A stretch of 64,000 bases of DNA from Dictyostelium discoideum (Eukaryota), in assembly GCA_000004695.1 (NCBI GenBank), contig CM000150.2, positions 4,128,001 to 4,192,000 of the forward strand. Direction: 5' to 3'. Position 1 is the first letter of the stretch. Each line of letters starts with the position of its first letter. Below, in pieces: positions 29,635-30,869 of this stretch. The notes below the pieces were generated by a model. That model was not told where the DNA came from and did no database searches. It saw only the letters and a program-made list of their open reading frames with translations. Position numbers and translations under genes: made by a program.

Positions 29635-29843
29635 TAAAATTTATCTCCACTCTCAAATAATATATTTGTATTTTCTTTTTTTTTTTTTTGGCATCCTTCA
29701 AAAATTCAAAAATAGATAAAGACATCTTCCTTTTTTTTTTTTTTACCTGTGATCAGACCTTCAAGGAATGTCCTTGTGTCTTTTCGGCGGTGTTTGTTAA
29801 ACAGTTTTATTTTTATTATTCAATTGTATTAAATTTTTTAAAC

Positions 29844-29852
<9 letters not shown>

Positions 29853-29914
<62 letters not shown>

Positions 29915-30830
29915 ACTACTTAAATTGGAAGAGGGTTCGGAGCTGCTGGGGTTTGCCAGGCTTTGTTGAATTTGTATTTGTGAAGATCTTGATAGGTGTT
30001 TTTTAGTATTGCTTCGTCGTGTTTGATTTTCTTTAGTGTGATGAATTTTTCAGTTTCGATGAGATTTAGTAATTCTGTTTCTATGACCTTTTGCTCGAAT
30101 TTTGGCTCTGGTTTGCTTTCATCAGTGTTGAACAATTTGTGACAGATTATCTTCCATAATTGGTGTGCTATTATTCCTATGAGGTTGGGGAAGATTCTCT
30201 CAGTTCTGTTGTATTTTGATATGTCTAAGGTATCCATTGACCATCTGTGGATTTTGATGAATGATAATTTGTTAACTGTTGATATGATGGTTTTTTCAAT
30301 ATCTAGGATATCTTGGCATAGAGTGAAGAGGTGAGAATAAGGGTCTCTGAATAGGTGGCCACAGATCTTGCATCTGGTATCTCTTTCGTGGTTGATACCT
30401 GGAAGTGATCTTGAGAAGAATCTGAAGAGGGTGTTTCTACCTTTTTGGTGAGAAATGCTGTTGATGTTTATGAATACTTTGGGTATTGCTGTGTTGTATC
30501 TCACCGCCCATAACTTCTGCCATTCTGTTCTTCTTGGTGTTGGGTGTCTGTCTTTGATCATGAGTTCGTAGATTTCTTTCAGTTTTAGTGGTTCGTCATT
30601 GTCGTTTCTTATACAGTCTGGAAGTTCATTTATCTTTGGATGGTTTTGGTAAAATTTGACTCTGAATACACCCCAGTGTCTGCACATATCGTTGAGGGTT
30701 GAAGTGTGGGCTTTTTTCTACTTAATTGCTCCATGTACCATTCTTGTAAAGTATTGTTGTTGTTGTTGTTGTTGTTATGGAGTAGCCTATAAAGACATCT
30801 TCCCATTTTTTTCAAATGTTTTCAAGGAAT
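29853..30830 (-). mobile_element. 5'-truncated non-LTR retrotransposon 3' end on the minus strand, TRE3-like by position. It holds a degenerate ORF2 C-terminus (ORFs 30815..30630 and 30687..29920, frameshifted) and a 58-nt poly(A) tail at 29910..29853.
   Basis: ORF 29920-30687 encodes a C-terminal Cys/His box (..RCKICGHLFRDPYSHLFTLCQ..) typical of the LINE ORF2 3' domain. A poly(A) tract lies immediately 3' on the same strand. The element sits on the 3' side of tRNA-Lys, just beyond its ex-B box, which is where TRE3 elements are known to integrate. Confidence 0.6.
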
Positions 30831-30836
30831 CGAACC
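30826..30836 (-). promoter_or_regulatory. Extra B-box (ex-B, GGTTCGATTCC on the minus strand), 34 bp downstream of tRNA-Lys.
   Basis: B-box consensus GGTTCGANTCC read on the tRNA strand. Downstream ex-B boxes are a known feature of Dictyostelium tRNA genes. Confidence 0.6.
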
Positions 30837-30869
30837 TGTGATTTAATTGTGGAAAAATTAAAAAAATTT

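Follow-up and report, generated by a model that had tools for sequence, protein, structure and literature searches.

A probable 5'-truncated TRE3-family retrotransposon copy with an internal poly(A) tract, downstream of a tRNA-Lys gene of Dictyostelium discoideum

Within the stretch of AT-rich Dictyostelium discoideum DNA that we analysed (64,000 nucleotides, hereafter the window), positions 29731-30788 of the minus strand very probably (we would put it at roughly 0.92) represent a Dictyostelium retrotransposon of the TRE3 family (non-LTR, L1-like), in the form of a copy that is dead and truncated at its 5' end. Its limits, which enclose 1058 bp, were set by aligning other copies of the element and by a target-site duplication that flanks it. 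The name TRE3 is a putative one, based on the way the element inserts and on homology to unnamed Dictyostelium proteins. A first-pass annotation had already seen here a minus-strand, 5'-truncated, TRE3-like fragment downstream of tRNA-Lys, and this description holds, with the element lying 80 nt beyond the 3' end of the tRNA gene and in the same orientation. The limits given at that time, 29853-30830, turned out to be wrong at both ends: homology to other copies starts at 30788, and a 3' module with a terminal oligo(A) extends the element to 29731. Read on the minus strand, the copy consists of a part of ORF2 and its stop codon, GTAGTAGTA, 59 A, a 108-nt module and finally 14 A (Table 1).

Table 1. 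Positions in the window of the element, its flanking duplication and the associated tRNA gene.
Feature	Position	Strand	Basis
Target-site duplication, left (3'-side) copy ATAAAGACATCTTCC	29716-29730	.	Directly after the terminal oligo(A)
Terminal oligo(A) tail, 14 nt, true 3' end	29731-29744	-	Sequence layout
3' module (3' UTR), 108 nt, behind the internal poly(A), ending GATCACAGGT	29745-29852	-	Conserved in related copies
Stem-loop AGAC-A-CAAGGA-CAT-TCCTTG-AAG-GTCT in the 3' module	29755-29781	-	Fold and conservation of pairing
Internal poly(A) tract, 59 nt	29853-29911	-	Tandem Repeats Finder
ORF2 C-terminus, 5'-truncated, about 289 codons, stop TAA at 29920-29922	29920-30788	-	Open reading frames and DNA alignment to L010
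CCHC zinc-knuckle codons, C-X2-C-X9-H-X4-C	30316-30372	-	Invariant alignment columns C106, C109, H119, C124
Target-site duplication, right (5'-side) copy ATAAAGACATCTTCC	30789-30803	.	Adjoins the first base homologous to other copies
ex-B box GGTTCGATTCC of tRNA-Lys, native flank	30826-30836	-	55 nt downstream of internal B box start 30891
tRNA-Lys(UUU), target gene	30869-30943	-	ARAGORN; Rfam tRNA, 72.6 bits

The copy shows the features of a non-LTR insertion, being truncated at its 5' end, provided with an A-tail at its 3' end, flanked by a target-site duplication and devoid of terminal repeats. The 64-kb window contains exactly two occurrences of the duplicated 15-mer, where 0.01 would be expected, and none of 100 shuffled sequences reached two matches. 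On the minus strand the 15-mer reads GGAAGATGTCTTTAT, at 30803-30789 and again at 29730-29716. An A14 end followed by an exact 15-bp duplication provides the combination of oligo(A) and target-site duplication that is seen in TRE3. Before the insertion the site is predicted to have read ...AAATAGATAAAGACATCTTCCCATTTTTTTCAAATG..., with one copy of the 15-mer. Homology searches with the region upstream of the fragment, and with the protein of the adjacent C2-domain gene (the latter aimed at an orthologous empty site), gave no matches. The 5' truncation point is fixed by a second D. discoideum copy (locus L010), since it is precisely at 30788 that the homology between the two begins, and the L010 copy extends further in the 5' direction; positions 30789-30830 are thus target-site duplication and native tRNA flank, outside the element.

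What remains of the coding capacity is the zinc-knuckle end of an L1-like ORF2, as judged from the domains of its homologues and from the CCHC motif. A minus-strand ORF of 255 amino acids (29920-30687) and coding sequence in another frame, upstream of it and up to 30788, are halves of one protein, split by a frameshift that results from a 1-nt deletion in an A-run (30712-30717: A6 here, A7 in L010, to which the element is 98.5% identical in a DNA alignment). The earlier reading of this region as a frameshifted ORF2 C-terminus with a CCHC box is therefore confirmed, and in a protein alignment the CCHC box is invariant across seven homologues. The CCHC stretch can also be aligned to the CCHC region of a TRE5-type ORF2 fragment at 34248-34676. 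In a homology search the ORF2 region was 46-72% identical to Dictyostelium proteins, and relatives came from Dictyostelium species only; among 1.8 billion representative proteins a profile search yielded 37 relatives, one of which is named as a non-LTR retroelement reverse transcriptase-like protein. Among the homologues from the profile search, P0012, P0025 and P0021 carry RVT_1 in their N-terminal parts, and P0022 (1189 aa) combines Exo_endo_phos and RVT_1 with the matching C-terminal region. For the family the order is thus that of endonuclease (APE), reverse transcriptase (RT) and zinc finger, with the first two seen in the homologues and the zinc-finger end alone retained in this copy. 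P0012 (KAM9946279.1) was considered as a natural mosaic of two subfamilies and rejected: it is a gene-model chimera (L009 5969-8612, D. discoideum assembly GCA_054883475.1) which fuses two TRE3 copies that lie in tandem and have separate target-site duplications. These two copies belong to different subfamilies and lie downstream of a tRNA-Val gene.

The 3' end of the element is not where it might at first be placed. The long poly(A) had been taken for the tail and given 58 nt; it measures 59 nt and is internal, with the module and the terminal oligo(A) following it. We compared 3' ends from D. discoideum (a second assembly), D. citrinum, D. dimigraforme and D. firmibasis, and in all other copies A-runs of variable length are found at the same place. 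In a D. citrinum copy (L001), for example, the stop codon is followed by GTAGTAGTA, an A-run, a sequence 94% identical to 29846-29745, a second A-run and the flank, and the same layout recurs in nine further complete 3' ends (two in L002, one each in L003, L004, L005, L006 and L010, and two in L009). The full order of stop, GTAGTAGTA, poly(A), module and oligo(A) is common to L001, L002, L004, L005, L006, L009 and L010, and is kept in L003 and in the L009 copy of the second subfamily as well, except that there the stop codon is not followed directly by GTAGTAGTA. The module takes the form ACACCGC...AGGT followed by oligo(A). It is 76-97% conserved in L001, L002 (two copies), L004, L005 and L006, near-identical in L009 and L010, and present in a diverged form in L003. 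All related copies end in ...AGGT and an oligo(A) of 11-23 nt, after which comes their own flank or target-site duplication, and those of the subfamily to which the window copy belongs all end in ...GATCAYAGGT and oligo(A). Since the module occupies the same place across copies, the long A-run is internal and the module is part of the element.

Two tandem poly(A) tracts do resemble the outcome of a 3' transduction or a chimeric retrocopy, and one may ask whether the 108 nt and the A14 are foreign, gained in this one event by transduction, with read-through of a source copy, or through a template switch to another polyadenylated RNA. We regard this as very unlikely, because the same junctions are found in copies that have target-site duplications of their own, in D. 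discoideum (L009 and L010), D. citrinum, D. dimigraforme and D. firmibasis. Clear duplications of this kind follow the oligo(A) in four copies (13 bp in L001, 15-16 bp in L003, 14 and 17 bp in L009), and in L010 a duplication of 11-12 bp is probable, with extra sequence between duplication and copy. Moreover, a second D. discoideum TRE3 subfamily represented in L009, which shares about 68% DNA identity with the subfamily in the window, is laid out in the same way around another module, which ends ...TACACCGCTTTTAGGT and oligo(A). Any transduction would thus have to be ancient and by now a part of the master element. The modular 3' end of TRE3 may already have been described in the Tdd-3/TRE3 papers of 1990-2001.

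Recognising the module as part of the element also changes how the two flanks should be compared. Three motifs had been reported to occur on both sides, at 29716-29780 and again at 30789-30845, and all three pairs are indeed present. The first, aaagacatcttcc (29718-29730 and 30791-30803), makes up 13 of the 15 bases of the exact target-site duplication. The other two were also taken for duplicated flank; in the left copies, however, ttcaaggaat (29760-29769, matching 30821-30830) is the 3' arm of the stem-loop inside the module, and cctgtgat (29746-29753, matching 30835-30842) is part of the terminal ATCACAGGT of the module. Since copies at unrelated loci of four species have the sequence of 29746-29769 at the corresponding place, these two were brought in by the element and were not copied from the flank. 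The earlier proposal, in which the element would end at the 59-nt poly(A) (29853) and the shared motifs would go back either to a target-site duplication, long and since degenerated, or to a local duplication of the flank, is in our view hardly credible. It accounts for three motifs common to both sides, and the 10-mer and 9-mer among the matches are jointly somewhat unusual in nominal terms, as an equal summed length of match between the module and the ex-B neighbourhood (AAATCACAGGTTCGATTCCTTGAA) is reached in 3.6% of dinucleotide shuffles of the flank; but the left ttcaaggaat and cctgtgat lie within the 108-nt module, which comes after the internal poly(A) in every related copy, the order of the motifs is permuted, and the true duplication, a clean 15-mer, lies on the far side of the oligo(A) tail.

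The match between module and ex-B surroundings deserves a few words. In this subfamily the last nine bases of the module, ATCACAGGT, and the stem arm match the neighbourhood of the ex-B box at tRNA genes of D. discoideum, and three of the nine ex-B boxes examined, both boxes in the window included, are preceded by ATCAYAGGT or by a variant with one base changed. This resemblance could hint at mimicry of a target motif by the module; because the second TRE3 subfamily, ending ...TACACCGCTTTTAGGT, lacks the ATCAYAGGT motif, we read it as probably a coincidence. A separate observation is that the ex-B boxes of tRNA-Lys and tRNA-Ile have an extended context in common, ATCACARGTTCGA (minus strand, 30830-30842 and 35531-35543), which is expected 0.2 times per window and reaches two matches in two of 100 shuffles. 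Its first nine bases equal the 3' terminus of the window subfamily or differ from it by one base.

The module contains a stem-loop. Folded alone, the last 130 nt reach -16.4 kcal/mol (z = -3.2), and the stem AGAC-A-CAAGGA / TCCTTG-AAG-GTCT is closed by GA/TC and ACC/GGT pairs. Of the stem positions in eight related copies 95% are paired, compared with 27-53% for slid controls, and one stem pair varies among AU, CG, GC and UG, this single variable pair being the source of the covariation. The D. firmibasis copy retains the outer stem AGAC/GTCT around a 5-nt loop, and the second TRE3 subfamily is without the long stem. A search of Rfam gave no match to the 3' module. The fold, the pairing across copies and the stem kept in D. 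firmibasis lend modest support to a conserved structure in the module.

In LINEs of the stringent type, such as UnaL2 of the eel, the reverse transcriptase recognises a stem-loop at the 3' end. The TRE3 module is similar in that it has a conserved stem-loop near the 3' end, kept even in extremely truncated copies, and it differs in that recognition of the module by the TRE3 reverse transcriptase would be conjecture, and in that the long stem is missing from the second TRE3 subfamily. We therefore put forward only tentatively, and consider on balance doubtful, a general proposal in which the 3' end of TRE3 is a short structured module behind a long internal poly(A) and the module, possibly serving as the entry site of the reverse transcriptase, is where reverse transcription starts. 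If this were true, micro-insertions made of 16-43 nt and an A-tail, with a target-site duplication or a tRNA gene of their own, would represent abortive starts at the module.

Such minute sequences do exist. One lies in the window, on the minus strand at 57505-57553, 42 nt downstream of an intron-bearing tRNA-Ala(UGC) gene (57580-57677), and consists of TACACCGCTTTTAGGT and A12 between the two copies of an exact 16-bp duplication, GCAACGAAAAATTTTA. The 16 nt of TACACCGCTTTTAGGT are those with which the second D. discoideum TRE3 subfamily ends (the L009 copy ending at 7790), and it looks like an extremely 5'-truncated TRE3 copy. Two others in D. citrinum (L004 8980-9010, minus strand, and L008 3927-3969) are made up of only the last 31-43 nt of the module and oligo(A), and are situated 111-140 nt downstream of tRNA-Ser and tRNA-Asp genes.

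Module-only copies of this kind, together with the documented occurrence of repeated insertions at one tRNA gene (PMC5006619, note to supplementary Table S2), allow one to imagine that our element arose in two steps, a module-only copy first and later an A59-tailed TRE3 fragment that landed exactly at the 5' edge of the module. There is, however, no second target-site duplication around 29853-30788, and the junction A(n)-TATAATATAGTTT is identical in other D. discoideum copies, so that a single contiguous template is the simpler explanation and two insertions appear highly improbable.

The position relative to the tRNA gene supports the assignment to TRE3. TRE3 elements share the orientation of the tRNA gene and lie 40-150 bp downstream, as counted relative to the internal or the ex-B box (PMC5911963), with a typical distance of about 100 bp (PMC5006619). 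On the minus strand tRNA-Lys is followed by a T-run and then by its ex-B box, and the 5' end of the element lies 103 nt past the start of the internal B box (30891) and 48 nt past the start of the ex-B box (30836). The first-pass annotation had put the ex-B box at 30826-30836, which is correct, and had let the element begin right next to it, which is not, as 37 nt lie between the two, the 15-nt duplication counted in. Both the downstream position and the shared orientation are those of TRE3, and not the upstream position and opposite orientation of TRE5. In nine of the ten loci that were fetched, as well as in the window, the related copies lie downstream of a tRNA gene that shares their strand. 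At L002 a tRNA-like sequence with a B box (GAGTTCGAATCC; 2655-2735, plus strand) lies upstream of a plus-strand TRE3 copy; ARAGORN did not call it, and this copy was scored as lacking a detected tRNA.

In all these respects the element is like the known TRE3 elements (TRE3-A/Tdd-3, TRE3-B, TRE3-C and TRE3-D), which are non-LTR, and with which it shares the oligo(A) end, the target-site duplication and the downstream position in the same orientation at about 100 nt from the B box (PMC5911963, PMC5006619). The ORF2 CCHC is retained here, its homologues have the order APE-RT-CCHC, and we know of no difference for the window copy, the likeness being drawn from these features. Truncation at the 5' end is likewise ordinary, as 5'-truncated TRE3 copies form the majority and only 13 of the 67 TRE3-A copies are full length (PMC5006619, Table 1).

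Starting from what is directly seen (the anatomy of the copy, its exact duplication, its homology to other copies, the conservation of the module, and position and orientation relative to tRNA genes), the insertion may be reconstructed with an order of steps taken from known L1/TRE biology. The endonuclease of the element would have nicked the plus strand after ...ATCTTCC (29730), about 100 nt downstream of the internal B box of tRNA-Lys, the seat of RNA polymerase III factors, and the target may have been recognised via factors bound to that B box; according to reviews, there is no experimental study of the TRE3 targeting mechanism. The free 3'-OH would then have primed reverse transcription at the terminal oligo(A) of the TRE3 RNA, which presumably proceeded over 1,044 nt and stopped short, and it is through this early stop that ORF1 and the endonuclease and reverse transcriptase domains would have been lost. 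A second nick with a 15-bp stagger would have generated the 15-bp target-site duplication. In its variable 5' truncation, its 3' A-tail and its target-site duplication, whose length is within the range usually given for L1, the element is similar to 5'-truncated L1 copies that arise by target-primed reverse transcription. It differs from L1, whose sites follow a loose TTTT/A consensus, in that its site is set relative to RNA polymerase III genes, and in that its long A-run is internal, with a structured module behind it.

The other side of the same tRNA gene is also occupied. A TRE5-type element in the opposite orientation begins 45 nt upstream of tRNA-Lys, and thus the claim that this gene is flanked by both classes of tRNA-targeted element is borne out. 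TRE5-A belongs to a sister family of tRNA-targeted non-LTR elements and has a modular 3' UTR composed of B- and C-modules (PMC5911963), and the TRE5-type 3' ends in the window show, as does the TRE3-like element, a poly(A), a module of about 100 nt, an oligo(A) and a target-site duplication. The differences are that TRE5 inserts about 44-54 bp upstream of the tRNA and in the opposite orientation, that the sequences of the modules are unrelated, and that the ORF2 C-terminus of the 34248-34676 fragment is 26% identical to that of our element.

Several TRE5-type fragments, all on the plus strand, form an array between tRNA-Lys and tRNA-Ile (30977-35480). The first copy (30989-33791) contains 3.5 units of a 199-bp A-module, ORF1, the start of ORF2, a poly(A), a B-module and a C-module, and appears to be internally deleted. 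It is flanked by the 12-mer TTGATCGTTATA, which is present at 30977, 33792 and 34228, a recurrence that indicates serial insertions into one site. At 13% of the tRNA genes of D. discoideum TRE5 and TRE3 are present together (PMC5006619), and both the insertion of TRE3 downstream of a tRNA gene and the double occupancy by TRE5 and TRE3 are ordinary, already known and indeed textbook biology for D. discoideum. The corrected limits of the element help in masking repeats and in assessing how neighbouring genes are affected, and are of little importance otherwise.

One such neighbour is the gene upstream of the element, which had been called a C2-domain protein and does encode one (Pfam C2, E = 4e-16), together with PATROL1-like repeats. 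The insertion had been placed about 220 bp past its stop codon; the actual distance is 105 nt (stop codon at 29623-29625, start of the duplication at 29716 and of the element at 29731). An AATAAA at 29633-29638 lies 78 nt before the insertion, and since this signal is ahead of it, the polyadenylation site of the C2 gene is probably ahead of it as well and the 3' end of the gene untouched, as far as can be judged from these positions. The last intron of the C2 gene (29305-29405) is mostly a T-run of about 70 nt (29309-29378), longer than the poly(A) of the element; without filtering it dominates the self-BLAST matches.
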